A DNA stretch of 64,000 nt, from the NCBI GenBank assembly GCA_963791015.1, contig CAWBQX010000006.1:135465-199464 (forward strand). Reading direction: 5' to 3'. This document shows positions 10,418 to 62,349 of this stretch, piece after piece. The position numbers and the translations under genes were made by a program. Each line of letters opens with the position of its first letter. Positions within the stretch are counted from its first letter, which is position 1. The stretch comes from an uncultured Acidimicrobiaceae bacterium. Its GTDB lineage: Bacteria; Actinomycetota; Acidimicrobiia; Acidimicrobiales; RAAP-2. The notes under the pieces were generated by a model. The model saw nothing but the letters and a program-made list of their open reading frames with translations, was not told the origin of the DNA and did not search any database.

Positions 10418-10896
10418 GAGGCGCAGTGTCCAATCACGTCGAGGGCGTGCGAGGTTGCCCGGAAGCCCTGTTGCCGGGTCAGCTCATCCACCATTGCGCT
10501 CACGGTGCGTTCGAAGTCGCTCGTGGGCGTCACGTCGATAACCCGACCGCACAGCGAGCACAGCAGGTGGTGATGGTGGTGGGTGAGGTCTTCGGCGAGC
10601 TCGAAGCGCGCGAACTCGTCGTTGGCCGCGATGCGTCGTACGACGCCGGCCTCTTGGAGGTCCGACAAGTGTCGGTAGGCCGAGCTGCGTGGCACATCAG
10701 GAACCGCACGGGCGATGTCCGAGATGCTGAGGGGGCGGCCGCTGGTGGCGAGAAGTTCAACGACCGCTTGGCGACCCGCGGTGTAGCGCTGGTCGATGCG
10801 GCGCAGATGAACCTCCACCAGTTCGTGTAGCTCCGAGTGCGAGGCGTCGGCGGGGTGGTGTGATCCGCTAGCAAAGCTCACCGATGGTCCTTTCAC
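10402..10896 (-). CDS. zur: Fur-family metalloregulator, probably Zur
   Basis: Winged-helix N-domain, HHHHLLCSLCGRVIDV and C-terminal GHCASC metal sites; divergent from a metal ABC uptake operon across an AT-rich palindrome. Confidence 0.75.
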   Translation of the reverse strand: MKGPSVSFASGSHHPADASHSELHELVEVHLRRIDQRYTAGRQAVVELLATSGRPLSISDIARAVPDVPRSSAYRHLSDLQEAGVVRRIAANDEFARFELAEDLTHHHHHLLCSLCGRVIDVTPTSDFERTVSAMVDELTRQQGFRATSHALDVIGHCASCHEN

Positions 10897-10912
10897 GGGT
10901 TGTCTCAGTTGT

Positions 10913-10931
10913 AATGAGACTCATTCTCATT
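10913..10931. promoter_or_regulatory. putative Fur/Zur box (overlapping AT-rich palindromes)
   Basis: AATGAGACTCATT is a perfect 13-bp palindrome; AATGAGA-N5-TCTCATT overlaps it. It is the only AT-rich dyad in the 48-bp divergent intergenic region. Confidence 0.5.
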
Positions 10932-10944
10932 CTACGCTGACGCC

Positions 10945-11878
10945 ATGACTACTCGCTCATTGGCAAAAACTTCGCTGGCGGCAGGCGTGGTGGTGCTCAC
11001 CCTGATCGTCGCTTCACTCGCCGCACAACCTTCGGGGGCCAGTTCGTCCCACGTCATCGTGGCCATCGGCGCGGAGAACGAGTACGCCAACGTCTTGAGC
11101 CAGATCGGCGGGAAATATGTGTCGGTCTCGTCAATCTTGAACAACCCCAACACCGATCCCCACACCTTTGAAGCGAGCGCCAGCGTCGCCGAAGAGGTGG
11201 CCAGCGCGGATCTCATCGTGCAAAACGGCGTGGGCTACGACGGCTTCATGAACAACATCGAGGCCGCCTCGCCCAACTCGAAGCGCAAGGTCATCGTCGT
11301 TCAAGACGTCCTGGGCCTGCCCACTGACACGCCTAATCCGCACCTGTGGTACAAGCCCACGACCATGCCCGCGGTCGCCAAGGCGATGGTCAAGGCCCTC
11401 GACAAACTCGCCCCGAACCACGCGGCATACTTCAAGGCCAACCTCACGACGTTTGACGCGTCGCTCCAGCCGTGGCTCCAGGCGATCGCTTCGTTCAAGG
11501 CCAAGTACCCGAACACGCCCGGTTGCGGTCACCGAACCCGTCGCCGACTATCTTCTCCAGGCGATGGGCGCCAAGATTCTCACCCCCTTTGTTTTCCAGG
11601 CGGACATCATGAACGGCGTCGATCCCGCGCCGGAGGATGTCACGAAAGAAGATGGTTTCTTCACAAAGCACGAAGTCAAGCTCTTCTGCTACAACCAACA
11701 GGTCGTGGACTCGCTGACGACCTCGATTCGCCAAACGGCCCAGTCGGCCAACGTTCCGGTCGTGGGTGTGTACGAAACGATGCCCACCCCGGGATACGAC
11801 TATCAGACCTGGATGCTGGCCGAAGTCAAAGCGATTGAGGCCGCAGTAGCCTCGCACAAATCGACGGAGAAGCTATAA
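10945..11878 (+). pseudogene. metal ABC transporter substrate-binding protein (ZnuA/TroA type) with one +1 frameshift
   Basis: ORF 10945.. reads ..FKAKYPNTPG then nonsense. ORF 11453..11878 continues ..PVAVTEPVADYLLQAMGAKIL..VVGVYETMP. The frames join at about 11518-11522 in a CCCGG run. Confidence 0.8.
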
Positions 11879-50025: not shown

Positions 50026-51429
50026 ATGCGCTACCCCGACATGGACGTCGCTGCCAGCCCGCTCGAGTTGATTGGCCACACCCCGATGGTTCGCCTCGGC
50101 ATTCTGGGGCGCGACATCGCCTGCGACGTCTTGGCCAAAATGGAGACCACCAACCCCGGCGGGAGCTCCAAGGATCGCCCGGCGCTGTCGATGATCCTGG
50201 CCGCCGAACACGACGGGCTGCTGCAGCCCGGCTACACGATCATCGAACCCACGAGTGGTAACACCGGGGTGGGTCTCGCCATCGTCGCCGCCCAGCGCGG
50301 ATACAAATGCATCTTTGTGATGAGCGACAAGATGGCGCCAGAGAAGATTGACGTGCTGCGCGCCTACGGCGCCGAGGTCGTCGTGTGTCCCACGGCCGTT
50401 GCCCCCGAGGACCCCGACTCGTACTACTCAACCGCCGAACGGCTCACCAAAGAGACCCCGAACTCGTTTCGCCCCGACCAATACTCGAATCCAAACAATC
50501 CGCTCGCGCACTACCAGACGACCGGTCCCGAGATCTGGGAACAGACCAACGGGCACGTCACCCACTTCGTGGCCGGCGCGGGTACCGGCGGGACGCTCAC
50601 CGGGGTTGCGCGCTATCTCAAGGAGCGCAACCCTGCGATCCGCGTGATCGCGGCCGACCCCCAAGGTTCGGTCTACTCAGGGGGTGCCGGGCGCCCCTAT
50701 CTGACCGAGGGCGTGGGTGAGGATTTCTGGCCCGAGAACTACGACCCCGCCCTGATCGATGAGGTCATCGCGGTGAGTGACGCCGACGCGTTCGCGATGG
50801 CACGAGAAATGACCCAGCGCGAGGGACTCTTAATTGGCGGCTCGGGCGGCACCGCAGTGGCGGCCGCCCTGCGGGTGGCGCGTGGCCTGAGCGATACGGA
50901 CGTCGTGGTTGTACTCATCCCCGACTCGGGACGGGGCTATCTCTCCAAGGTCTTCAACGACACCTGGATGACGGACTTCGGGTTCTTGCGCCCCCACAAC
51001 GAGATGGACGTGGGTGATGTGCTCGCCGACAAGATCGAACGCCAGGAGAGTTCTCTCGCCGACCTCGTTCTCGTGACGGAAGAGACACTGGTGCGCGACG
51101 CGATCTCGCTGATGCGCGAGAAAGACGTGTCGCAGTTGCTCGTCACGGTCACCGACGAACTGCCACTGGCCGCGAAGGAAGTCTCGGGTTCGCTCAGTGA
51201 GCTCGGACTTCTCGAGGCGACCACGCGCGATGAGTCCGTGTTGGACCTTCGCGTGAAGGACATCGCCGACCCCACGTTGCCCATGGTGGGCGTGGGGATG
51301 AGCGTGAAGGAACTCACCGGTCGCCTGGCCACCACGGCCGGGGTGCTGGTCCTGGATGGGGGACACCCGGTCGGCGTGCTCACGCGCAGCGACTTGCTCA
51401 GCTACCTCGAGCGAAGGAGATCGTCATGA
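50026..51429 (+). CDS. cbs: cystathionine beta-synthase (PLP fold-type II plus tandem CBS domains)
   Basis: NPGGSSKDRPA PLP-lysine motif, GTGGTLTG, C-terminal CBS pair; followed by a gamma-lyase gene. Confidence 0.85.
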   Translation: MRYPDMDVAASPLELIGHTPMVRLGILGRDIACDVLAKMETTNPGGSSKDRPALSMILAAEHDGLLQPGYTIIEPTSGNTGVGLAIVAAQRGYKCIFVMSDKMAPEKIDVLRAYGAEVVVCPTAVAPEDPDSYYSTAERLTKETPNSFRPDQYSNPNNPLAHYQTTGPEIWEQTNGHVTHFVAGAGTGGTLTGVARYLKERNPAIRVIAADPQGSVYSGGAGRPYLTEGVGEDFWPENYDPALIDEVIAVSDADAFAMAREMTQREGLLIGGSGGTAVAAALRVARGLSDTDVVVVLIPDSGRGYLSKVFNDTWMTDFGFLRPHNEMDVGDVLADKIERQESSLADLVLVTEETLVRDAISLMREKDVSQLLVTVTDELPLAAKEVSGSLSELGLLEATTRDESVLDLRVKDIADPTLPMVGVGMSVKELTGRLATTAGVLVLDGGHPVGVLTRSDLLSYLERRRSS

Positions 51430-52559
51430 AGGGTTTCAACACGCGTGCGATTCACGTGGGGTCCGATCCGGATCCATCGACCGGCGCGGTGAACCCTCCC
51501 GTTTACCTCACTTCGACCTACGCCCAGGACGGCGTGGGTGTGATTCGCTTCTCGGACTACGCGCGCGGCGACAACCCGACCCGGGCGGCCCTCGAAACCT
51601 GTCTGGCGAACCTCGAGGACGCGCAGTTCGGCGTGGCCTTCGCGTCGGGCCTGGCCGGGGAAGACGCACTGCTGCGCACGCTGGCGCCGGGTGACCACGT
51701 GATCATGGGCATCGACGCCTACGGCGGGACGTATCGACTGCTCACTCGCGTCTTTGGGGCCTGGGGGATCAGTGTGTCCACCGTGGACCTGAGCGACAGC
51801 GACGCCATCGAGTCGGCGTTTACAGCCACCACCAAGATGATCTGGGTCGAGACGCCAAGTAATCCGATGCTGAGTGTGGTCTCGATCGAGGCGCTGGCTT
51901 CTCACGCGCACTCCCACGACGCCCTGCTCGTGGTCGACAACACTTTCGCTACGCCGTACTTGCAGCGTCCGCTCAATCTGGGCGCCGACGTGGTGGTGCA
52001 CTCGACGACCAAGTACATCGGCGGTCACTCCGACGTGATCGGGGGATTCGTCGCGACGAACAACGAGGACGTGGCGACCAAGTTGAAGTTCCATCAGTAC
52101 GCGATCGGTGCCGTACCCGGACCGCTCGACTGCTATCTGCTCCTGCGAGGAATCAAGACGCTCGGGGTGAGGATGGATCGGCACTGCGAGAACGCGCGCG
52201 CCATCGTCGACTTTCTCGTGCAGCACGAAGCAGTCGAGGACGTCTATTACCCGGGCCTCGCCGGACACCCGGGCCACGAAGTAGCGCGCACCCAGATGCG
52301 CGACTTCGGCGGCATGATCAGTTTCACCGTGCGCGGCGGCAGTGACGTCGCGCGCAAGGTCTGTGAGTCCACAAGTGTGTTCATCCTCGCCGAGTCATTG
52401 GGCGGCGTGGAGAGCCTGATCGAGTTGCCCTCGGTCATGACCCATCTGTCGACCGCGGGCTCGACGCTCGAACCCCCGGACAACCTGGTGCGAATCAGCG
52501 TGGGTCTCGAAGACCTTGACGATCTGTTGGAAGATTTGGCGAACGCGCTCGCGCTTTAG
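51426..52559 (+). CDS. cystathionine gamma-lyase / gamma-synthase family (Cys/Met metabolism PLP enzyme)
   Basis: ATGA overlap with cbs; [16 protein letters not shown]-lysine motif; about 377 aa. Confidence 0.85.
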
Positions 52560-55254: not shown

Positions 55255-56151
55255 CTACAAAGATTCGGCGAGCGCCGCGGCATTTTCCAGCCCGCGTCGG
55301 CCCACCTCGAGGTAGCTCGCTCGCTCCGTGAGGCCGAGGGACACCATCATGAGCCCAAAGAGCAGAGCCCACCCGATCGTTCGCCACGATGTCGCCTTGT
55401 CGACGTCTCCGTAGGCCGAAAAGAACGTGTCGACGTGAGCCAGGGGCAACGACAACAAGCCGCCCGCCAGGTCAGTGGCGGGATCTCCGGCGCAGAGGTC
55501 TCCAAAGTCGACCACCCCGACGAGTTCGGCCTCGCGAAAAATCATGTTGCCCGGGTGAAAGTCGCCGTGGATCCAGCGCGGTGCGAGCGACCACGGCGCT
55601 GCCGCGCACGCGCGTTGCCACAACTGGAGGGTCTCATCGATGTCGACTTCGCCCCCGAGCTCCCAGATTCGCCGTTCGCCGTCGGCCGTGCGCTCGGCGA
55701 GTGGGACGCTTCGCCACGGGTTGATCGGAGCGTCGAGAGGGGCGTCGCAGTGGAGTTCGTGCAGGAAGGTGGCCATGGCGCGCGCGGCGGCACCGTCGGC
55801 GTCCTGGTCGTTCTCGTCGCCCGGGATGCCCTCGATCCAGTGGCCGACCAGCCAGGGCCAGGGGAACCGCTCGCTGGGGGATCCGGCGCGCAAGGGGGCC
55901 GGGGTCCGCAAGGTGAGGCGCGAGGCGAGAGGATTCAGCCACGCGATTTCGTTTTCCATCGGGACGACGGCCGCCGCGCGACGCGGTAGGCGCACGACGA
56001 GGTCGTCGCCCAGTCGCCACAGGAAGTTGTCGAAACCCTCACCAATGTGCCAACACTCGTGGTCGGCGATCTCGGGAAATTGGGTGCGCAGAATATCTCG
56101 CACCAACGCCTCATCGACGTGCATCTCCGCGTGGGGCCAGCTCACACTCAC
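55255..56151 (-). CDS. aminoglycoside/small-molecule phosphotransferase (APH family)
   Basis: Brenner motif IHGDFHPGNMIF and VVDFGDLCAGDPATDLA. Confidence 0.8.
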   Translation of the reverse strand: MSVSWPHAEMHVDEALVRDILRTQFPEIADHECWHIGEGFDNFLWRLGDDLVVRLPRRAAAVVPMENEIAWLNPLASRLTLRTPAPLRAGSPSERFPWPWLVGHWIEGIPGDENDQDADGAAARAMATFLHELHCDAPLDAPINPWRSVPLAERTADGERRIWELGGEVDIDETLQLWQRACAAAPWSLAPRWIHGDFHPGNMIFREAELVGVVDFGDLCAGDPATDLAGGLLSLPLAHVDTFFSAYGDVDKATSWRTIGWALLFGLMMVSLGLTERASYLEVGRRGLENAAALAESL

Positions 56152-56169: not shown

Positions 56170-56793
56170 TTACTCGCCGCCGCGCTGGCGCTGCGCGAGG
56201 GCTACGGCATCCAGAGTCGGAACGGGAATGAGATCCCAGATACTGCAGTTGCCCACGGCCATCATGTCCAGACCCTCGAGTGCGGTGTCCAACACGTAGG
56301 CGTGCAGCGCGCGGATGGTGCCGCCGTGGGTAACGACAAGGAGCCGTGTGTCACCGAGTGTGTCCAGCGTGTCGTCGAGGAAGGATCCAGCTCGAATGAC
56401 GACGTCGCGAAACGACTCGCCGCCAGCCGGTCGAGCGTCGGGATCGATCAGCACGCCGTCAGTGATGCCGCTACTCGCGGGACCGAGAAACTCCAGGGGT
56501 TGGCCCTCGAGGGCCCCGAAACACCGTTCGCGAAGCCGCAGGTCGCTTCGCACATCGAGTTCAAGTTCCCTGGCGATAATCTCGGCCGTTTGGCGGGCCC
56601 GGCGCAGGTCGCTCGAGACAATATGAGTAAACCCCAATGATTTCAGGGTCTGTGCGGCCGAGAGCGCTTCGTTCTGGCCCCGTGGCGTGAGTTCCGCGTC
56701 GTCGTTTTGCCCCTGGATGAGGCTGCGTTCGTTCCACGTGCTCTGCCCGTGACGAACGAGCGTCACGCGAGCGCTGGGGGTGGGCGACGTCAT
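56170..56793 (-). CDS. histidine phosphatase (phosphoglycerate mutase-like) family protein
   Basis: VTLVRHGQSTWN catalytic RHG motif, second His in VVTHGGTI. Confidence 0.85.
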   Translation of the reverse strand: MTSPTPSARVTLVRHGQSTWNERSLIQGQNDDAELTPRGQNEALSAAQTLKSLGFTHIVSSDLRRARQTAEIIARELELDVRSDLRLRERCFGALEGQPLEFLGPASSGITDGVLIDPDARPAGGESFRDVVIRAGSFLDDTLDTLGDTRLLVVTHGGTIRALHAYVLDTALEGLDMMAVGNCSIWDLIPVPTLDAVALAQRQRGGE

Positions 56794-56945
56794 GACGGCC
56801 AGGCTAATGAGTGAAACAAGGGGCTCCGAGCGCTCTGGCTACCGGGGTGAGGCAAGTATTCACAGGAATATCCAAGCGATTCCTGAGAAGAACTCACCAC
56901 GATCTTAGGCACTTCTCTAAAGAATTGGCAAAGACGTCGTTTACG

Positions 56946-57731
56946 ATGGCAGACGTGACTTTGACCCTGCCTCAGCGAAGTTCCAAGCCCCGTACCGGTG
57001 GCCTCACGATGATCATCGACAAGGGTGCGCCCACCCGACAGTTCGAAGATCTCATTGACAGCCATAGCGCGCATATCGACTTCGTCAAGTTCGGGTGGGG
57101 TACGTCGGTCGTGACTACCAACTTTTCTGACAAGCTCGACATCCTGAAAAACGCAGGCGTGGACTTCTACTTGGGCGGAACGCTGTTTGAGAAGTACGTG
57201 CAACAGCACCGCTTTGAGGAGTTCCGCGATCTGTGCGTCGGCTACGGCTGCAGCTTCGTCGAAGTGTCCAACGGCACGATCGACATCAGCAATGACGACA
57301 AGGCCGAGTACGTCAAGCGGCTCTCGGACGACTTCTTCGTGATCTCCGAGGTGGGTTCGAAGGACCAAGAGGCGTCTGACCTGATGGCACCCCATAAATG
57401 GGTGAGTTTTATCAACGCGGACATCGAGGCCGGGGCAGTTCTGGTCACCCTGGAGACTCGCGAGGGCGGTAAGGGTGGCATCTGCCGATCCAACGGCGAG
57501 CTGCGGTATGGCCTCATCGAGGAGATCCTGTCCGCCAAGATCGACTACGGCAAACTTCTTTTCGAGGCCCCCTCGACCGAGCTGCAGACGTACTTTGTGC
57601 GCCGGATCGGTCCCGACGTTAACCTCGGCAACATCGCAATCACCGACGTCATTCCCTTGGAGACCATTCGCCTCGGCCTGCGTAGCGAGACGCTGCTTGA
57701 CTTTGAACCTGGCTCTGCCGACGACTTCTAG
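56946..57731 (+). CDS. comA: (2R)-phospho-3-sulfolactate synthase (ComA family)
   Basis: ATG 56946; LPQRSSKPRTGGLTMIIDKG, IDFVKFGWGTS, YLGGTLFE, FVEVSNGTI, ISEVGSKD match the ComA family along the full length. Confidence 0.8.
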   Translation: MADVTLTLPQRSSKPRTGGLTMIIDKGAPTRQFEDLIDSHSAHIDFVKFGWGTSVVTTNFSDKLDILKNAGVDFYLGGTLFEKYVQQHRFEEFRDLCVGYGCSFVEVSNGTIDISNDDKAEYVKRLSDDFFVISEVGSKDQEASDLMAPHKWVSFINADIEAGAVLVTLETREGGKGGICRSNGELRYGLIEEILSAKIDYGKLLFEAPSTELQTYFVRRIGPDVNLGNIAITDVIPLETIRLGLRSETLLDFEPGSADDF

Positions 57732-57733
57732 CT

Positions 57734-58147
57734 ATGAGAGAAAGTCGTGACGTTTTTCACCTCGCTATCCCGGCCTACGACCTCGACGAGACGGTTGAGT
57801 TCTACGTCACCAAGCTGGGCTGCAAACTGGCTCGTCGCTACGACGACCGCGTAACGTTCGACTTTTTCGGGGACCAACTGGTCTGCCACCTCAGCGAGGC
57901 TCCGGCCGAGCGCGTGCCCATGAACGAGTTGCCCATGTACCCGCGACATTTCGGCGTGACGTTCCGCGAGCAGCGCGACTTTGACCAGCTCTACCAGCTC
58001 TGCCAACAGCGCGATGTGCCGTTCTTCGCCGACGTCAGTCTTCGATTCGAGGGCCGAGTTGAGGTGCACCAGACGTTTGTCGTGTGCGATCCCTCCTCGA
58101 ATCTCCTCGAGTTCAAGCATTACGCTGACTCGCGCATGATGTACTAA
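57734..58147 (+). CDS. VOC (glyoxalase/dioxygenase-fold) family protein
   Basis: FHLAIPAYDLDETVEFY..LGC, HFGV, DPSSNLLEFK; 137 aa. Confidence 0.7.
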   Translation: MRESRDVFHLAIPAYDLDETVEFYVTKLGCKLARRYDDRVTFDFFGDQLVCHLSEAPAERVPMNELPMYPRHFGVTFREQRDFDQLYQLCQQRDVPFFADVSLRFEGRVEVHQTFVVCDPSSNLLEFKHYADSRMMY

Positions 58148-58158
58148 GCGTCGGGTCG

Positions 58159-59649
58159 ATGGAGTCCCCCACCTCGACGGATCCCCTCTTCGCTCTCGTT
58201 CGCGAACGCTCGCACGAGCGCGCCGACGCGCCCTACCTGCTCGACGCGCGCTCGACGAATGTCGTCACCTATGAACGCTTGAGCGAGCAACTTGTTCATC
58301 ACCGTCGAGCTCTGCGGTCGTGGGGCCTCGCCTCAGGCGAGCGCGTCGGGCTCGTGATCGCCGACCCGTTGACCTTCGCGGAGTGGTATCTCGCGGTCAT
58401 CTCCCTCGGCGCGTGGGCCGCCCCCTTGGACCCGACCCCCGCCGCACTGACATCTTCAAGCTCCCGAGCGAACGCACTGAGTGTGAAGTTCGTCGTCAGC
58501 GATCGATCGCGCCCCGCAGGCAACGTCACCAATTGGATCGAGATGAACGCGCCAATGCTTCTTCTCGCGGGCGTGGCTGACGAAGAACATCCGGCTCTGG
58601 GCGGCCTCCTGTTGTCCTCATCGGGGACGACCGGGACGCCCAAGGTGATGGCTCTGGGCGTCGAGCAACTCTTGGCGACCGCGCAGTTGATCGCTCAGCA
58701 TCACCAGTTCACGCCAAGCGATCGGGGCTTCAATCCGTTGCCTCTCTGGCACGTCAACGCTGAGGTCGTGGGACTCCTTGCGACATTGGTTGCGGGGTCG
58801 TCTCTCGTGCTCGACGATCGCTTCCACCGCACTGGGTTCTGGAAGCTCGTCAACGAACTGGACGTCACGTGGATCAATGCGGTGCCAGCAATCATCTCGC
58901 GACTCGCGACCTTGGACGAGGGCGAGATCCCTTCGCGTCACATTCGCTTCATTCGATCGGCCTCGGCCCCGCTGGCCCCGTCGCTCTTTGAGCGCTTCGA
59001 GGCGCAGGTCGGCGTGCCGATCGTCCAGTCCTACGGCATGACCGAAGCAGCGAGTCAGATCTGTGTCTCGCCGATCGACGAGGTTCGCAAGGCGGGATCA
59101 GTCGGTCGGCCCGCCGGCGTGCAGGTACGGGTGTTGGCGGAGGGTTCCGAGGTCGGTCCGATCGAGATCAAGGGACCGACCGTTATCACGCGATACGAGA
59201 GCCCCGGTTACGAGGGCCGATTCGACGCCGACGGGTGGCTTCGCACCGGAGACCTCGGGTACTTCGACGACGATGGCTACCTCTTCATCATGGGCCGCGA
59301 CGACGACGTCATCAATCGCGGCGGCGAAAAGATCTACCCGCTCGAAATTGAAGAGATCCTCGCCACGGTCGACGGCGTGGCTCGCGTCGCGGTCGTGGGA
59401 CTCGAGGACGAGGTGTTCGGCCAGGTGCCCGTTGCGTTCGTGCAACCCGAAGCGGATCAACTTCGCGCGAGCGACTACGCGCCGTTAGTCGCTCGCGTGC
59501 GCGACAAGGCGAGCGAGCTCCTCTCCCCGACGCGACGACCCATGAGCGTCAACGTGGTCGAGGCGCTGCCCGCCCACGCGACCGGCAAGATCCAGAACGC
59601 GACCTTGCGCAGTGGCGACGTCACGGTCCTCTACGAAGAGCGTCTGTAG
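58159..59649 (+). CDS. AMP-forming adenylating enzyme (acyl-CoA synthetase/ANL superfamily)
   Basis: LLSSSGTTGTPK (A3), YGMTE (A5), GDLGYFDDDGYLFIMGRDDDVINRGGEKIYP (A7/A8), ATGKI (A10). Confidence 0.8.
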   Translation: MESPTSTDPLFALVRERSHERADAPYLLDARSTNVVTYERLSEQLVHHRRALRSWGLASGERVGLVIADPLTFAEWYLAVISLGAWAAPLDPTPAALTSSSSRANALSVKFVVSDRSRPAGNVTNWIEMNAPMLLLAGVADEEHPALGGLLLSSSGTTGTPKVMALGVEQLLATAQLIAQHHQFTPSDRGFNPLPLWHVNAEVVGLLATLVAGSSLVLDDRFHRTGFWKLVNELDVTWINAVPAIISRLATLDEGEIPSRHIRFIRSASAPLAPSLFERFEAQVGVPIVQSYGMTEAASQICVSPIDEVRKAGSVGRPAGVQVRVLAEGSEVGPIEIKGPTVITRYESPGYEGRFDADGWLRTGDLGYFDDDGYLFIMGRDDDVINRGGEKIYPLEIEEILATVDGVARVAVVGLEDEVFGQVPVAFVQPEADQLRASDYAPLVARVRDKASELLSPTRRPMSVNVVEALPAHATGKIQNATLRSGDVTVLYEERL

Positions 59650-59664
59650 CCCGGTGGGAAGATT

Positions 59665-60903
59665 GTGGAGGTGAGCGAGAACACCGAGGTGTCCCGGGGA
59701 ACGCGCCAGCGACTCGATCACGTAGACGCCATGCGTCCGATCAAACAGACGGCGGTCATTTCCACCCACGCGCTGATCTACTTCTCACCACTCTCGACGA
59801 GTTTCGTCGCGGCCAGTCTGCTCACCGTGACGCACTTTTCGAGGGACGCCTTCCTCTTCGTCTCGGCGTGCATGCTCGCCTACAGCTATCGAAACTCCAC
59901 CAGCGTCAAGCTGGCCCCGTACTGGAAGCGGCGCTTCATCTCGGTGGGCCTCGTCTACATCGTGTGGAGCGTGATCTACTTTCCCATCGCCGCGGCTCAG
60001 GACACCTCGACCTTTCCCTACCTCAAGATTCCGGGCTCGGCCATCTTTAGCCATCACGGACTCCACGACTTTCTCTTCAACTTCGCCACCGGCTACTACC
60101 ACCTCTACTTCTTGCTGGTACTACTCGAGTTCTACGTCCTGTTTCCCGCGATCTTCTGGTACCTGCAGCGCTACCCGCGCTCGCGCATCCCCGTGCTGCT
60201 TGGGGCGCTTTTGTGGCAGGTTGTCTTTCCCATCGCGATCCGCAAGAACTGGTTCGGCTTCGTCATGCCGTCGAAGATTGAGACGCGACTGGTGTTCTCG
60301 TACCCGCTCTATCTCCTGGGTGGGGTGGTGTGCGCCTTCTACCTGGAGTCGTTTCACGACTGGGTGCTGCGCCACAAAAAGGCGATCCTGATCGCCACGG
60401 TGGTAGCCGCTGCCGTCCCGCTCATCGTGGACTACGCAGCCAAGCACGGGTCGTCGATCTCGGGAGTGATCGTGCCCGGGGGGAACCCCTTCGCCGCACT
60501 GGTAATTCCGTACGACGTCCTGGCGATCCTGTGCGTCTACCTGTTCGGGGTCTATCTCGTGAGTCCCAATCGCAGTGCGCGCACGCGCGCCATCACCGCG
60601 TCGGGTTCGGAGGCCGCGTACGGCATCTACGTGTCCCAGATCGTCTGGATCATCGTGGAGATTGCCTGGGCCAAGCATTTTCACCTGTACCAGCGTGTTC
60701 CGTGGGGGATCCTCGCCTTCGCCGCGCTCGTCATTACCTATCTCGCGGGCTGGCTCTTCAGTGCGCTGTGCGCACGTACGCCCCTCGCGCGTGCGGTCGT
60801 GGGGCGCGCACAGGTGCCTTGGCGCACGTTGTGGCCGCATCCTTCGTCATCGAACAGCGAACCGGACTTCGGCGAGGGGCCACTCAATCTGTCCGATGGC
60901 TAG
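59665..60903 (+). CDS. acyltransferase-3 (AT3) family integral membrane O-acyltransferase
   Basis: 412 aa, about 10 TM segments, N-terminal ..R..H.D..R motif region (RLDHVDAMRPIK), HLYFLLVLLEFY. Confidence 0.7.
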   Translation: MEVSENTEVSRGTRQRLDHVDAMRPIKQTAVISTHALIYFSPLSTSFVAASLLTVTHFSRDAFLFVSACMLAYSYRNSTSVKLAPYWKRRFISVGLVYIVWSVIYFPIAAAQDTSTFPYLKIPGSAIFSHHGLHDFLFNFATGYYHLYFLLVLLEFYVLFPAIFWYLQRYPRSRIPVLLGALLWQVVFPIAIRKNWFGFVMPSKIETRLVFSYPLYLLGGVVCAFYLESFHDWVLRHKKAILIATVVAAAVPLIVDYAAKHGSSISGVIVPGGNPFAALVIPYDVLAILCVYLFGVYLVSPNRSARTRAITASGSEAAYGIYVSQIVWIIVEIAWAKHFHLYQRVPWGILAFAALVITYLAGWLFSALCARTPLARAVVGRAQVPWRTLWPHPSSSNSEPDFGEGPLNLSDG

Positions 60904-60963: not shown

Positions 60964-62349
60964 GTGTCGAGGTCCAAGCGCGAGAGCGAGCGCCAGCGCA
61001 TCCCCCCACCACTGATCAAGCATCGTGTTCCCTCCGGACGGGGTGCGATGGAGCAGCCCAACGTCGCTCACGACGGCGACGCCCGGCTCACCCCTAAGTT
61101 CTGGCTGGCGGTCGTACTCACCGGCGTGGCCGCAGGGCTCTTCGGCGATCTGCTCATGTGGATCCTCAGTCTGTCGGAGCGAGTGGCCTTCGACTACCAC
61201 TCGGGTAGCTACCAGGCGTCGGTGGCTCGCGCATCGGACGCCCATCGGGTGATCTCCTTGGTCGTAGCGGGGGCTATTGGTGCGGTGTCCTGGTACTTGA
61301 TTCGCCGCTACCTGAAAAAGGAGCACTCCGAGATCGACGAAGCGGTGTGGTCAGGCGACGGCGAACTCGGCATGCGACGCAGTCTTCTCACCTCCCTCGT
61401 GTCCGAGGTCGTCGTCGGTGCGGGAGCGTCCATCGGTCGTGAGGCGGCGCCCAAGTTGATGGGCGGAGCGTCGGGCTCACTCATCGCGCACTGGTTCAGT
61501 CTCACGAGTGCGCAAAAGCGCCTGCTCGTGGCGTGCGGCGGGGGCGCGGGACTGGCCGCGGTCTACAACGTGCCATTGGGTGGCGCACTCTTTACCGCGG
61601 AGGTTCTCTACGGGAGTTTCGTGCTGCCCGTTGTGTTCCCCGCGCTCGCGACGTCGGTCATCGCCACGGTTGTGTCGTGGATCTACCTGCCCAGTCACGC
61701 GACGTACGTGGACGTGCCGAACTACCGCTTGAGCGCATCGCTGATGGTCTGGTCGCTGCTCGCGGGAGTCGTCATCGGCCTGCTTGCGGTGGGGTATGTC
61801 CGGTTGATCGGATGGGTCTCGTTTTACCGCGCGAAGGGCACCCACATCTTGTGGCAGATGCCCATCACGTTCGCGCTCGTTGGCGTAGTGGGCATCTGGT
61901 ATCCCCAACTCTTTGGCAACGGCAAGGACATGGCGCACCAAGCTTTTCTCGGTGTCGGTGGCATCGGATTGTTCTTCGCGCTCTTTGCCCTCAAGCCCCT
62001 AGTCACCTCACTCACGCTGGGCAGCGGCGCGGCGGGTGGTCTGTTCACACCGTTTCTCGCGACGGGAGCGATGTTCGGCGCGTTTTTCGGCGCGGCGTGG
62101 GTGCACCTGTGGGCGGGTACCCCGGTGGGCGCGTTCGCCCTCGTGGGTGCGGCCGCGATGATCGGGGCCGCGATGCAGGCCCCTCTCGCCGGGTTGGTTC
62201 TCGTCTTCGAACTCGTCCACGGAGCCTTTGGCATCAGCATTCCGATGATTATGGCCACGGTGATCGCGACGTTATTGGTGCGCCAGATCGATGGATACTC
62301 GATCTATTCGGCGCGTCTACCGCAGCGCGAGCCCGCCCACGAGACCTGA
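60964..62349 (+). CDS. ClC-family chloride/anion channel or antiporter
   Basis: GASIGREAAP, GGALFTAE, GGLFTPFLATGAMFG motifs; multi-TM. Start may be ATG 61048. Confidence 0.8.
   Translation: MSRSKRESERQRIPPPLIKHRVPSGRGAMEQPNVAHDGDARLTPKFWLAVVLTGVAAGLFGDLLMWILSLSERVAFDYHSGSYQASVARASDAHRVISLVVAGAIGAVSWYLIRRYLKKEHSEIDEAVWSGDGELGMRRSLLTSLVSEVVVGAGASIGREAAPKLMGGASGSLIAHWFSLTSAQKRLLVACGGGAGLAAVYNVPLGGALFTAEVLYGSFVLPVVFPALATSVIATVVSWIYLPSHATYVDVPNYRLSASLMVWSLLAGVVIGLLAVGYVRLIGWVSFYRAKGTHILWQMPITFALVGVVGIWYPQLFGNGKDMAHQAFLGVGGIGLFFALFALKPLVTSLTLGSGAAGGLFTPFLATGAMFGAFFGAAWVHLWAGTPVGAFALVGAAAMIGAAMQAPLAGLVLVFELVHGAFGISIPMIMATVIATLLVRQIDGYSIYSARLPQREPAHET

Follow-up and report, generated by a model that had tools for sequence, protein, structure and literature searches.

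A recurrent bacterial gene cassette that may build a sulfonated acyl donor and hand it to an AT3 membrane acyltransferase

Introduction

The closest described counterpart of the system reported here comes from natural product biosynthesis. Misaugamycin is a type V glycopeptide of Streptomyces sp. WAC00631, whose gene cluster includes the four-gene operon misNOPQ, coding for acyl carrier protein (ACP), acyl-CoA (coenzyme A) ligase, phosphosulfolactate synthase and glyoxalase (Xu et al. 2022, PMC9136965). This operon is predicted to supply the 2-sulfoacetyl tail of misaugamycin-B, and feeding sulfite to a heterologous S. coelicolor host raised the yield of this sulfonated congener (PMC9136965). 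Misaugamycin-A carries malonyl, the carboxylate isostere of sulfoacetyl, and misNOPQ-type cassettes are present in several other Streptomyces (PMC9136965). In the current study, we analyzed a 64,000-nucleotide stretch of DNA (hereafter called the window) from an uncultured Acidimicrobiaceae bacterium (contig CAWBQX010000006.1, positions 135,465 to 199,464), where genes for a histidine phosphatase, a ComA-family phosphosulfolactate synthase, a VOC metalloenzyme, an ANL adenylating enzyme and an AT3 membrane acyltransferase lie side by side.

The second relevant body of knowledge concerns the AT3 acyltransferases. An R/K-X10-H motif in the first transmembrane (TM) helix is essential in OafA and OafB and probably binds the acyl-CoA, and an RXXR motif lies in the first cytoplasmic loop (PMC9558356). 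Members that move anionic succinyl groups are known, including ExoH, MdoC/OpgC and IcaC, and the same review contains neither 'ligase' nor 'sulf' and describes no sulfonated acyl group (PMC9558356). In the literature searched, we found no envelope component and no enzymology for sulfoacetyl or sulfolactyl groups beyond misaugamycin and catabolic sulfoacetyl-CoA, and no follow-up paper on the misaugamycin cassette.

Here we present comparative evidence that the five genes of the window belong together. We judge the chances to be evenly balanced that they constitute a self-contained module that produces a short-chain acyl donor bearing a sulfonate and passes it on at, or across, the cytoplasmic membrane.

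A five-gene cassette

Four genes on the forward strand are tightly packed. They code for a 261-amino-acid ComA-family phosphosulfolactate synthase (56946..57731; PF02679, 271 bits where the cutoff is 25.2, over positions 1-242 of the 243 in the profile), a 137-amino-acid single-domain VOC metalloenzyme with a FosA-like fold (57734..58147; PF00903, 42.8 bits), a 496-amino-acid ANL adenylating enzyme or acyl-CoA ligase (58159..59649; PF00501, 149 bits, and PF13193, 55 bits), and a 412-amino-acid AT3-only membrane acyltransferase (59665..60903; PF01757, 80.8 bits against a gathering score of 31, spanning residues 21-365). The gaps between them in the table of open reading frames (ORFs) of the window are 2, 11 and 15 nucleotides. 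On the reverse strand, a gene for a 207-amino-acid branch 1, phosphoglycerate mutase-like histidine phosphatase (56170..56793; PF00300, 157 bits) is separated from comA by a 152-bp divergent spacer (56794..56945), whose directly measured G+C content is 51.3% versus 63.5% for the whole window. All five proteins exceed the Pfam gathering score for their families. Thus, recomputed coordinates and gaps, together with the Pfam matches, reproduce what had been described from the letters of the window alone (the sequence-only reading), namely four packed same-strand genes and a divergent histidine phosphatase across a comparatively AT-rich spacer.

Conservation of the cassette

A ComA scan of contigs from one genome per species returned 80 loci, onto which the window proteins were mapped by tblastn and in which all neighbouring ORFs were clustered. 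A strict subset comprises 47 species-level loci at which ComA is flanked by no less than 5 kb of sequence on each side. Within this subset, the VOC gene directly adjoins comA at 42 loci (72 of 80 overall), and VOC, ANL and AT3 genes are found together at comA in at least 32. A phosphatase gene of any kind is adjacent to comA in 33 of the 47, with the histidine phosphatase accounting for 27 and ComB for six.

The order of the genes is permuted among lineages. Acidimicrobiia and Trebonia carry ComA-VOC-ANL-AT3, Streptosporangiaceae carry ComA-VOC-AT3-ANL, Nocardia and Actinomycetospora carry ANL-AT3-ComA-VOC, and Alicyclobacillus carries AT3-ANL-ComA-VOC, while the Frankia cassette is arranged divergently. 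Neighbouring frames frequently abut or overlap, as in Nocardia terpenica, where the ANL and AT3 genes share one base and those for ComA and VOC overlap by 8 nucleotides. The flanks differ as well. L005 and L029 have a pair of GDSL proteins and genes related to copper (SCO1/SenC, CtaG) next to the module, whereas the clade of the window has APH-family and CLC-type genes there. Because its content is conserved and its order permuted across Actinomycetota, Bacillota and Chloroflexota, the five-gene set is a selected functional module and not a chance grouping, and the ComA, VOC, ANL and AT3 neighbourhood first noticed in a single sequence is indeed shared by relatives. The VOC protein is its best-conserved member, with 86% tblastn identity where ComA has 76% and ANL 64%.

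The closest ComA relatives derive from metagenome-assembled genomes (MAGs) of Acidimicrobiales and Acidimicrobiaceae from soil, bog and peat. Metagenomes of peat, bog and soil are rich in the module, with more than 8000 candidate ComA relatives and about 2300-2700 VOC clusters at 90% identity, and it is present in many streamlined soil MAGs in varied housekeeping contexts. The cassette is also carried by culturable organisms (Nocardia terpenica, Trebonia kvetii and Alicyclobacillus spp.), and therefore the hypothesis is directly testable. In N. terpenica it lies between 1,103,471 and 1,119,869 of CP023778.1, and in T. kvetii 15TR583 at ~1.744-1.749 Mb of NZ_RPFW01000001.1.

A second type of ComA locus was also encountered. 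A paralogue that is 72-73% identical is present at L031 (9929-11746) and at L032, in the same MAG as L030. At L031, the gene has the same upstream motif (described below) and is followed only by one for a GDSL/SGNH protein, with no VOC, ANL or AT3. One MAG carries both a complete cassette and an L031-type locus. The 569-amino-acid ORF upstream of the L031 paralogue, found in L031 and L032 only, encodes a Ser/Thr/Ala-rich secreted protein. An ORF of the same length in N. terpenica was considered as a homologue and rejected, as the two are unrelated in sequence.

ComA and the phosphatase position

The ComA ORF as listed starts with a GTG codon and spans 56811-57731. We assigned the start to ATG 56946 because this gives the same 261-amino-acid length as that of a 98%-identical relative (P0001). 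An alternative start at GTG 56955 (Val4 of the ATG-start form) would yield 258 amino acids, a length shared by numerous homologues. Among proteins of solved structure, its best relatives are B. subtilis YitD (1U83, 272 bits) and an M. jannaschii protein (1QWG, 165 bits), and 69 residues are invariant across 76 cassette ComAs.

In Bacillota and in one MAG each of Methylomonas and Bacteroidota, canonical ComB (PF04029, 116 bits) is encoded directly upstream of, and overlapping, ComA. In most Actinomycetota, the histidine phosphatase occupies that position, and in Actinomycetospora a DSPc-type phosphatase encoded after VOC represents a third phosphatase fold in the slot. The histidine phosphatase gene adjoins comA in 48 of the 80 loci, where it can be divergent (window clade), co-directional (L005, L038, L043, L054) or downstream and convergent (L039, L041, L047), and in Trebonia it overlaps the start of comA by 4 nucleotides. 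Its catalytic set (R14-H15-G16, R65, E89, H156) is invariant in 45 cassette-linked homologues, and the window protein reaches no NCBIfam equivalog cutoff (cobC, gpmB and PspA are among the models). Since the three phosphatase types fill the same slot and the catalytic residues of the histidine phosphatase are invariant, there is good comparative evidence that it would serve as a non-orthologous ComB, meaning a phosphosulfolactate phosphatase. The sequence-only reading had ventured the same assignment, which the shared slot, the frequent adjacency and the overlap in Trebonia support.

The VOC enzyme and its replacement

The VOC protein of the window is 64% identical to PDB entry 3RRI from Alicyclobacillus acidocaldarius, a structural-genomics entry without an assigned function. 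An AlphaFold2 model (pLDDT 91.7) includes two beta-alpha-beta-beta-beta modules, and its next structural relatives after 3RRI are FosA and FosB (TM-scores of 0.6-0.68). The protein does not reach the thresholds for FosA, FosB or FosX, scoring 16-21 bits where the NCBIfam cutoffs are 180-275. Eight residues are invariant (H9, R34, R39, H52, H72, R104, H112 and D119), and conservation is 90% or higher for R71 and E126. In an alignment with FosB, H9 and H72 match His residues that are taken to be metal ligands. Given the invariant H9, H72 and H112, the near-invariant E126, and the arginines R34, R39 and R104 (plus R71), the protein is predicted to hold a metal centre in a strongly cationic pocket, which suits a small poly-anionic C3 acid.

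Two kinds of loci that lack VOC help to place its activity. In Domibacillus (L077, L082), ComB and ComA are encoded without VOC, an arrangement that resembles the yitC-yitD pair associated with the sulfolactate of spores in B. subtilis, and this resemblance suggests that VOC acts downstream of sulfolactate. In two Chloroflexota loci (L067, L070), the cassette reads ANL-AT3-FMN_dh-hydrolase-ComA. The FMN_dh proteins score 423-451 bits on PF01070, and their best NCBIfam matches are L-lactate oxidase and flavin mononucleotide (FMN)-dependent L-lactate dehydrogenase. Enzymes of this family oxidize L-2-hydroxy acids to 2-oxo acids, and lactate monooxygenase goes further to yield CO2 and an acid that is one carbon shorter. 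The (2R) product of ComA is of the L configuration owing to Cahn-Ingold-Prelog priorities, and would thus have the configuration accepted by the FMN_dh family. Because an FMN-dependent L-2-hydroxy-acid oxidase takes the place of VOC in Chloroflexota, VOC is more likely to be an oxidative C3-to-C2 enzyme than the rearranging enzyme that the sequence-only reading had envisaged, in which case the transferred group would probably be sulfoacetyl and not a C3 sulfo-acid.

Several other VOC occurrences were recorded. In Sulfobacillus harzensis (L094, 5638-8399), a VOC gene of the same subfamily (77% identical to the Nocardia VOC) is not next to comA and comes after genes for a D-2-hydroxyacid dehydrogenase and a major facilitator superfamily transporter, a context that hints at an importable 2-hydroxy or 2-oxo acid as the substrate. 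Distant homologues (~37% identity) on plasmids of Agrobacterium (pAt), Azospirillum and Geminocystis never adjoin ComA and are uninformative on function. Apparent fusions of VOC with an AMP-binding domain (P0367), a ComA fragment (P0363) or an ATP-grasp domain (P0439), seen in a library of representative proteins, each contain a truncated VOC and are probably frameshift or gene-call artefacts that arise from neighbouring genes, although the adjacency of VOC and ATP-grasp in P0439 suggests a further cassette variant with a different carboxylate-activating enzyme. At L010 (~10788-11775), tblastn recovers VOC in two parts (82% and 93% identity), and ANL is displaced by ~560 nucleotides relative to sister loci. 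A misassembly of the MAG, a frameshift or an insertion may be the cause.

The ANL ligase

All of the ANL core motifs that had been called present from the sequence could be located, including A3 (SSGTTGTPK, 154), A5 (YGMTE, 292), A7 (TGDL, 363), A8 (GRDDDVI, 379) and A10 (TGK with K477). The nearest solved relatives are oxalate-CoA ligases (5IE0, 200 bits; 6QJZ; 8AFF), followed by FadD13, MenE and malonyl-CoA synthetases. No named NCBIfam equivalog is reached, as indicated by the scores for FadD7, which is the best hit (256 versus a cutoff of 650 bits), malonyl-CoA synthase (212 versus 558) and MenE (210 versus 330). Cassette ANLs are 35-92% identical to the window protein, versus 28% for unrelated ANLs encoded nearby. 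We propose that the enzyme is a sulfoacetate-CoA ligase, because oxalate- and malonate-CoA ligases are its nearest relatives and sulfoacetate is the sulfonate isostere of malonate. The malonyl group of misaugamycin-A likewise fits a ligase of this kinship.

The AT3 acyltransferase and its outer partners

The TM1 motif of the AT3 protein (R24-X10-H35) is invariant in 48 cassette AT3s, as are D21, R60 and R90, the last of which is part of the sequence KRRF (88-91). The ten TM helices assigned by the sequence-only reading are plausible, in that a crude hydropathy scan recovers eight strong hydrophobic segments and the remaining two are weaker and recognizable by eye only. A sequence search returned no solved AT3 relative.

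At 22 of the 80 loci, the cassette is accompanied by a gene for a GDSL/SGNH protein with an N-terminal signal or anchor sequence. Trebonia kvetii and two MAGs encode larger AT3 proteins (724-793 amino acids), and the C-terminal extension in T. kvetii consists of an extra TM helix and a hydrolase domain with the sequence GYSNGG. This extension is homologous to the stand-alone alpha/beta hydrolase of L067 (27% identity over 277 amino acids, E = 5e-16). Such recurrent secreted partners, fused to AT3 in Trebonia, lend support to the earlier suggestion that the acyl group is handed to AT3 for an extracytoplasmic acceptor.

Proposed pathway and alternative explanations

A five-step route can be drawn from these assignments. 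ComA would add sulfite to phosphoenolpyruvate (PEP) to form (2R)-phosphosulfolactate, as predicted from family membership, and the histidine phosphatase, judging by its displacement of ComB, would release (R)-sulfolactate, which has the L configuration. VOC would then probably convert sulfolactate to sulfoacetate and CO2 by a metal- and O2-dependent oxidative decarboxylation. The VOC reaction is the weakest step, and is proposed because of the misaugamycin precedent, the displacement by FMN_dh and the lack of any other candidate enzyme. The likeness of ANL to oxalate- and malonate-CoA ligases suggests that it forms sulfoacetyl-CoA via sulfoacetyl-AMP. AT3 would take this donor at the cytoplasmic face and pass its acyl group to an acceptor on the extracytoplasmic side, in all likelihood a glycan or glycolipid hydroxyl of the cell envelope, and in relatives a secreted SGNH or alpha/beta-hydrolase partner would assist the transfer. 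Three slots of the cassette are filled by unrelated proteins in different lineages: the phosphatase (histidine phosphatase, ComB or DSPc), the middle enzyme (VOC or FMN_dh) and the outer partner (SGNH or alpha/beta hydrolase, either separate or fused).

In its most specific form, which we offer tentatively and regard as possible rather than probable, the proposal is that many Gram-positive lineages of soil and acidic habitats esterify an envelope glycan or lipid with sulfoacetyl, that the FosA-like VOC family of 3RRI decarboxylates sulfolactate oxidatively, and that the result is a pH-proof negative charge. The lineages concerned are Acidimicrobiia, Streptosporangiales/Trebonia, Nocardia, Frankia, Alicyclobacillus and Chloroflexota. 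Acidic environments are the source of many hosts, among them MAGs from bog, palsa and SPRUCE peat as well as Trebonia, Alicyclobacillus, Ferroacidibacillus, Sulfobacillus and Silvibacterium. A sulfonate is ionized at any physiological pH, unlike succinyl carboxylates, and therefore a sulfoacetyl ester would provide a pH-independent negative surface charge. This rationale for acidic habitats is speculative.

A number of observations weigh against the proposed route. Only family membership and gene linkage are directly established, and the chemistry is wholly inferential. On TIGR03849, the archaeal ComA equivalog, the window protein scores 226.1 bits against a cutoff of 280, which places it by sequence in the bacterial YitD-like branch. 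Seven full cassettes lack an adjacent phosphatase gene, and therefore VOC might act on phosphosulfolactate itself. Replacement of VOC by FMN_dh is seen at two loci of a single phylum, and we know of no characterized 137-amino-acid FosA-like VOC protein that carries out O2-dependent oxidative decarboxylation of a 2-hydroxy acid. No credible small ORF resembling a PP-binding ACP (GxDS motif) was seen in the window or in 87 related loci, and a 92-amino-acid ORF in L070 has no Pfam match. No SGNH or hydrolase partner is encoded in the 64-kb window, which makes its acyltransferase an AT3-only type that would act either alone or with a partner encoded elsewhere. The supply of sulfoacetyl to misaugamycin is itself a prediction made without knockouts or enzymology (PMC9136965). 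Finally, an envelope polymer is not assured as the acceptor, as discussed below.

The transferred group might instead be a C3 sulfo-acyl unit (3-sulfolactyl, sulfopyruvyl or sulfoacrylyl), with VOC serving as an epimerase, isomerase or phosphate-eliminating lyase. The VOC fold supports proton transfer on 2-hydroxyacyl thioesters, its family includes methylmalonyl-CoA epimerase and glyoxalase I, the three invariant arginines and the near-invariant one could accommodate phosphosulfolactate, and seven cassettes are without a phosphatase. Elimination of phosphate from phosphosulfolactate to give sulfoacrylate is also known, by an enzyme of another fold, XcbC (PMC9457059). However, 2-sulfoacetyl is the only chemically defined product tied to a ComA-VOC-ligase cassette, the FMN-dependent replacement points to oxidation of a free 2-hydroxy acid, and the sequence neighbours of ANL are ligases for C2-C3 dicarboxylates, so we consider a C3 group unlikely while taking it seriously. 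A different doubt concerns the acceptor. Two AT3 papers describe proteins that acylate small secreted molecules such as antibiotics and Nod factors besides envelope glycans (PMC9558356, PMC9833829), and the sole known sulfoacetylated product is an antibiotic. Thus, the sulfo-acyl-CoA could be made as proposed and then used by AT3 to decorate a secreted glycosylated natural product or signalling oligosaccharide. This is decidedly unlikely given that no biosynthetic gene cluster, whether for a nonribosomal peptide synthetase (NRPS), a polyketide synthase or a group of glycosyltransferases, lies around the cassette in the window, L001, L005, L091 or L093, that the N. terpenica cassette abuts a ribosomal protein operon, that the genomic contexts in streamlined soil MAGs are of the housekeeping type, and that SGNH partners are typical of polymer acylation.

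A simpler role is conceivable in which ComA, the phosphatase and VOC make a soluble sulfonate (sulfolactate or sulfoacetate) that disposes of sulfite or acts as a compatible or spore-type solute, and ANL and AT3 are bystanders with an unrelated fatty-acyl function. Sulfolactate does accumulate in B. subtilis spores, and ComB-ComA-VOC sets without ANL or AT3 exist in Anoxybacillus, Alkalihalobacillus, Ferroacidibacillus, and the Methylomonas and Bacteroidota MAGs. The regular company of ANL and AT3 with ComA-VOC, at no fewer than 32 of the 47 loci and across four phyla, in permuted orders and with overlapping frames, is unexpected of bystanders, and the cassette ANLs form a coherent group, which makes this account very unlikely. 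The presence of a ComA-family enzyme also brings to mind coenzyme M (CoM) synthesis by the archaeal ComABCDE or bacterial XcbABCDE routes, and the ANL enzyme SauT activates sulfoacetate in Cupriavidus catabolism, such that a catabolic role for sulfoacetate or sulfolactate might be considered. We hold these functions to be extremely improbable. No ComB, ComC, ComDE, aspartase/fumarase-type XcbC/D or XcbE is encoded in the window, or in the 10 kb that flank the cassette on each side in L001 and L005, and sulfoacetaldehyde dehydrogenase, Xsc and a sulfite exporter are likewise missing. Moreover, the CoM-type ComAs of alkene oxidizers (Xanthobacter Py2, Nocardioides JS614 and M. chubuense) are only 38-43% identical, and ComA catalysis runs in the biosynthetic direction. 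The absence of ComB, ComC and ComDE remarked on in the sequence-only reading therefore holds for the window, in which no homologues of ComB, ComC/DE-type enzymes, SGNH, DSPc or FMN_dh were found across 64 kb (window and Pfam matches of the near-identical contig L001).

Upstream region and neighbouring genes

A conserved 19-nucleotide cis motif, ATTCACAGGAATATCCAAG, is located upstream of comA at 56858..56876 on the forward strand, and the conserved sequence ATTCACAGGAWWTTCCAAG falls within 56858-56885 on the same strand. When the pattern TC[AT]CAGG[AG][ATG][AT][AT]TC was searched on both strands of 1.5 Mb, representing all loci plus the window, 27 matches were obtained. All but one of these (26) sit 72-119 nucleotides upstream of ComA, always on the ComA strand, and the loci that carry them are from Acidimicrobiia with a ComA identity of 74-100%. 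In the window clade, the motif is part of a 7-9-7 inverted repeat, CAGGAAT-N9-ATTCCTG (56863-56869 and 56879-56885). It is a candidate operator or promoter element.

Within 56941-56957 (forward strand), the sequence TACGAT, conserved as TAC.AT in relatives, precedes GTG 56955 by 7 nucleotides and is a possible -10 box for a leaderless mRNA that yields the 258-amino-acid form of ComA. A sigma-70 scan reported one promoter-like site (TTGCCA-18-TAAGAT, minus strand, 56931..56902), no more than chance would give, and all matches of a terminator scan are inside genes. No riboswitch or other RNA was matched in Rfam between 55000 and 62500 at E <= 1.

The rest of the window is ordinary chromosome, with genes for a ClpC-like ATPase, a RadA-like protein, a class II aminoacyl-tRNA synthetase and FtsX, and nothing in it points to a mobile element or a secondary-metabolite cluster. 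The genes immediately outside the cassette, which encode a CLC-type chloride channel or antiporter after AT3 (60964-62349, forward strand) and an APH-family phosphotransferase beyond the phosphatase (55255-56151, reverse strand), were considered as module members and rejected. Both are syntenic in about 19-22 Acidimicrobiaceae loci and are missing at the cassette in L005, L029 and all other lineages, and thus probably reflect clade synteny.

Other genes recur near the cassette. At 50026-52559 (forward strand), 4-7 kb upstream, the window carries a cystathionine beta-synthase-like gene (PALP and CBS domains) and one for a Cys/Met-metabolism pyridoxal phosphate enzyme (gamma-lyase). This pair, conserved only in the close relatives L001 and L002, places sulfur amino-acid metabolism near a sulfite-consuming pathway. 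A divergent response regulator and histidine kinase pair is consistently encoded just upstream of the phosphatase and comA in Streptosporangiales (L042-L076; for example, L054 7109-9249) and also beside the cassette in Chloroflexota (L067, L070), and is a candidate for a dedicated regulator of the module. Finally, a CitMHS/ArsB-type anion permease (PF03600/PF02040) is encoded no more than 2-3 kb from the cassette at 13 loci (L016-L035, L073), including one from Alicyclobacillus, and is possibly a transporter of sulfite or a sulfonate.

Implications

If the proposed function is correct, C-sulfonate acyl esters would be a new chemical class of bacterial surface modification, acting as an anionic equivalent of D-alanylation and as an analogue of succinylation that is insensitive to pH. 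The solved but unannotated protein family of 3RRI would gain a function, and the VOC superfamily a new activity. The histidine phosphatase and DSPc-type proteins would add a third and a fourth fold to the phosphosulfolactate phosphatases, and AT3 systems would be seen to be capable of carrying their own donor-synthesis pathway. A biosynthetic route to sulfoacetyl-CoA would also help in the engineering of natural products with a sulfonate, misaugamycin-B among them.

Comparison with known systems

The cassette is best filed as a combination of ComA-based sulfonate biosynthesis and AT3-mediated transmembrane acylation, with a partial natural-product precedent. It shares with misNOPQ, to which it was compared by description only, the encoding of ComA, a glyoxalase/VOC protein and an acyl-CoA ligase in one operon. 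In misaugamycin biosynthesis an ACP and an NRPS receive the acyl group, whereas the window cassette has AT3 and a dedicated phosphatase instead. The sequence-only reading had stated that no pathway of this composition is described, and this claim stands in part. The core triad, with an ACP, has been reported in the misaugamycin cluster (PMC9136965), whereas the coupling of this core to AT3, phosphatases and secreted hydrolase-fold partners is not described in the literature searched. No Streptomyces is included among the best 120 matches listed for either VOC homology search, and a ComA search of plasmids recovered only CoM-type genes.

The first two predicted steps, from PEP and sulfite via phosphosulfolactate to sulfolactate, are those of ComA and ComB in archaeal CoM synthesis and of YitD and YitC in B. 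subtilis. The window differs in that a histidine phosphatase is present rather than ComB, ComC and ComDE are lacking, and VOC, ANL and AT3 are encoded downstream.

For VOC, 3RRI is a true family member, though one with no assigned function. The resemblance to FosA, FosB and FosX extends to the domain-swapped fold, the His residues aligned with FosB (H9, H72) and a conserved Glu (E126). Fos enzymes bind a C3 phosphonate at the metal, and the VOC substrate is likewise expected to be a small anionic C3 compound. However, the window protein is below the Fos thresholds, and its gene family adjoins comA rather than serving as a resistance determinant.

ANL finds its best solved matches among CoA ligases for very short anionic acids, as represented by oxalate-CoA ligase (AAE3) and MatB, but the score to AAE3 is only ~200 bits. 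SauT, a sulfoacetate-CoA ligase, is another ANL CoA ligase for a short anionic acid.

The AT3 protein shares the R-X10-H motif with O-acyltransferases such as ExoH, MdoC/OpgC, IcaC, mycobacterial SucT and the AT3-SGNH proteins OafA and OatA, among which there is precedent for anionic acyl groups. The likeness to AT3-SGNH proteins lies in the cassettes of relatives, which encode a secreted SGNH partner or a fused extracytoplasmic hydrolase-fold domain, and the alpha/beta-hydrolase type of partner is unusual compared with known AT3 systems. Those systems draw on acyl-CoAs of central metabolism (acetyl-, succinyl- and propionyl-CoA), whereas the window appears to encode its own donor pathway and CoA ligase.

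In general plan, the cassette also recalls the Dlt system, in which the adenylating enzyme DltA, the carrier protein DltC, the MBOAT protein DltB and DltD act together to D-alanylate teichoic acids. In both cases, an adenylating enzyme is encoded with a polytopic acyltransferase, an SGNH-like transferase can take part, and the outcome would be an esterified envelope polymer with a tuned surface charge. The acyltransferase is an MBOAT protein in one and AT3 in the other, and only Dlt employs a carrier protein. Moreover, Dlt adds positive charge, whereas the module described here would add a fixed negative one.

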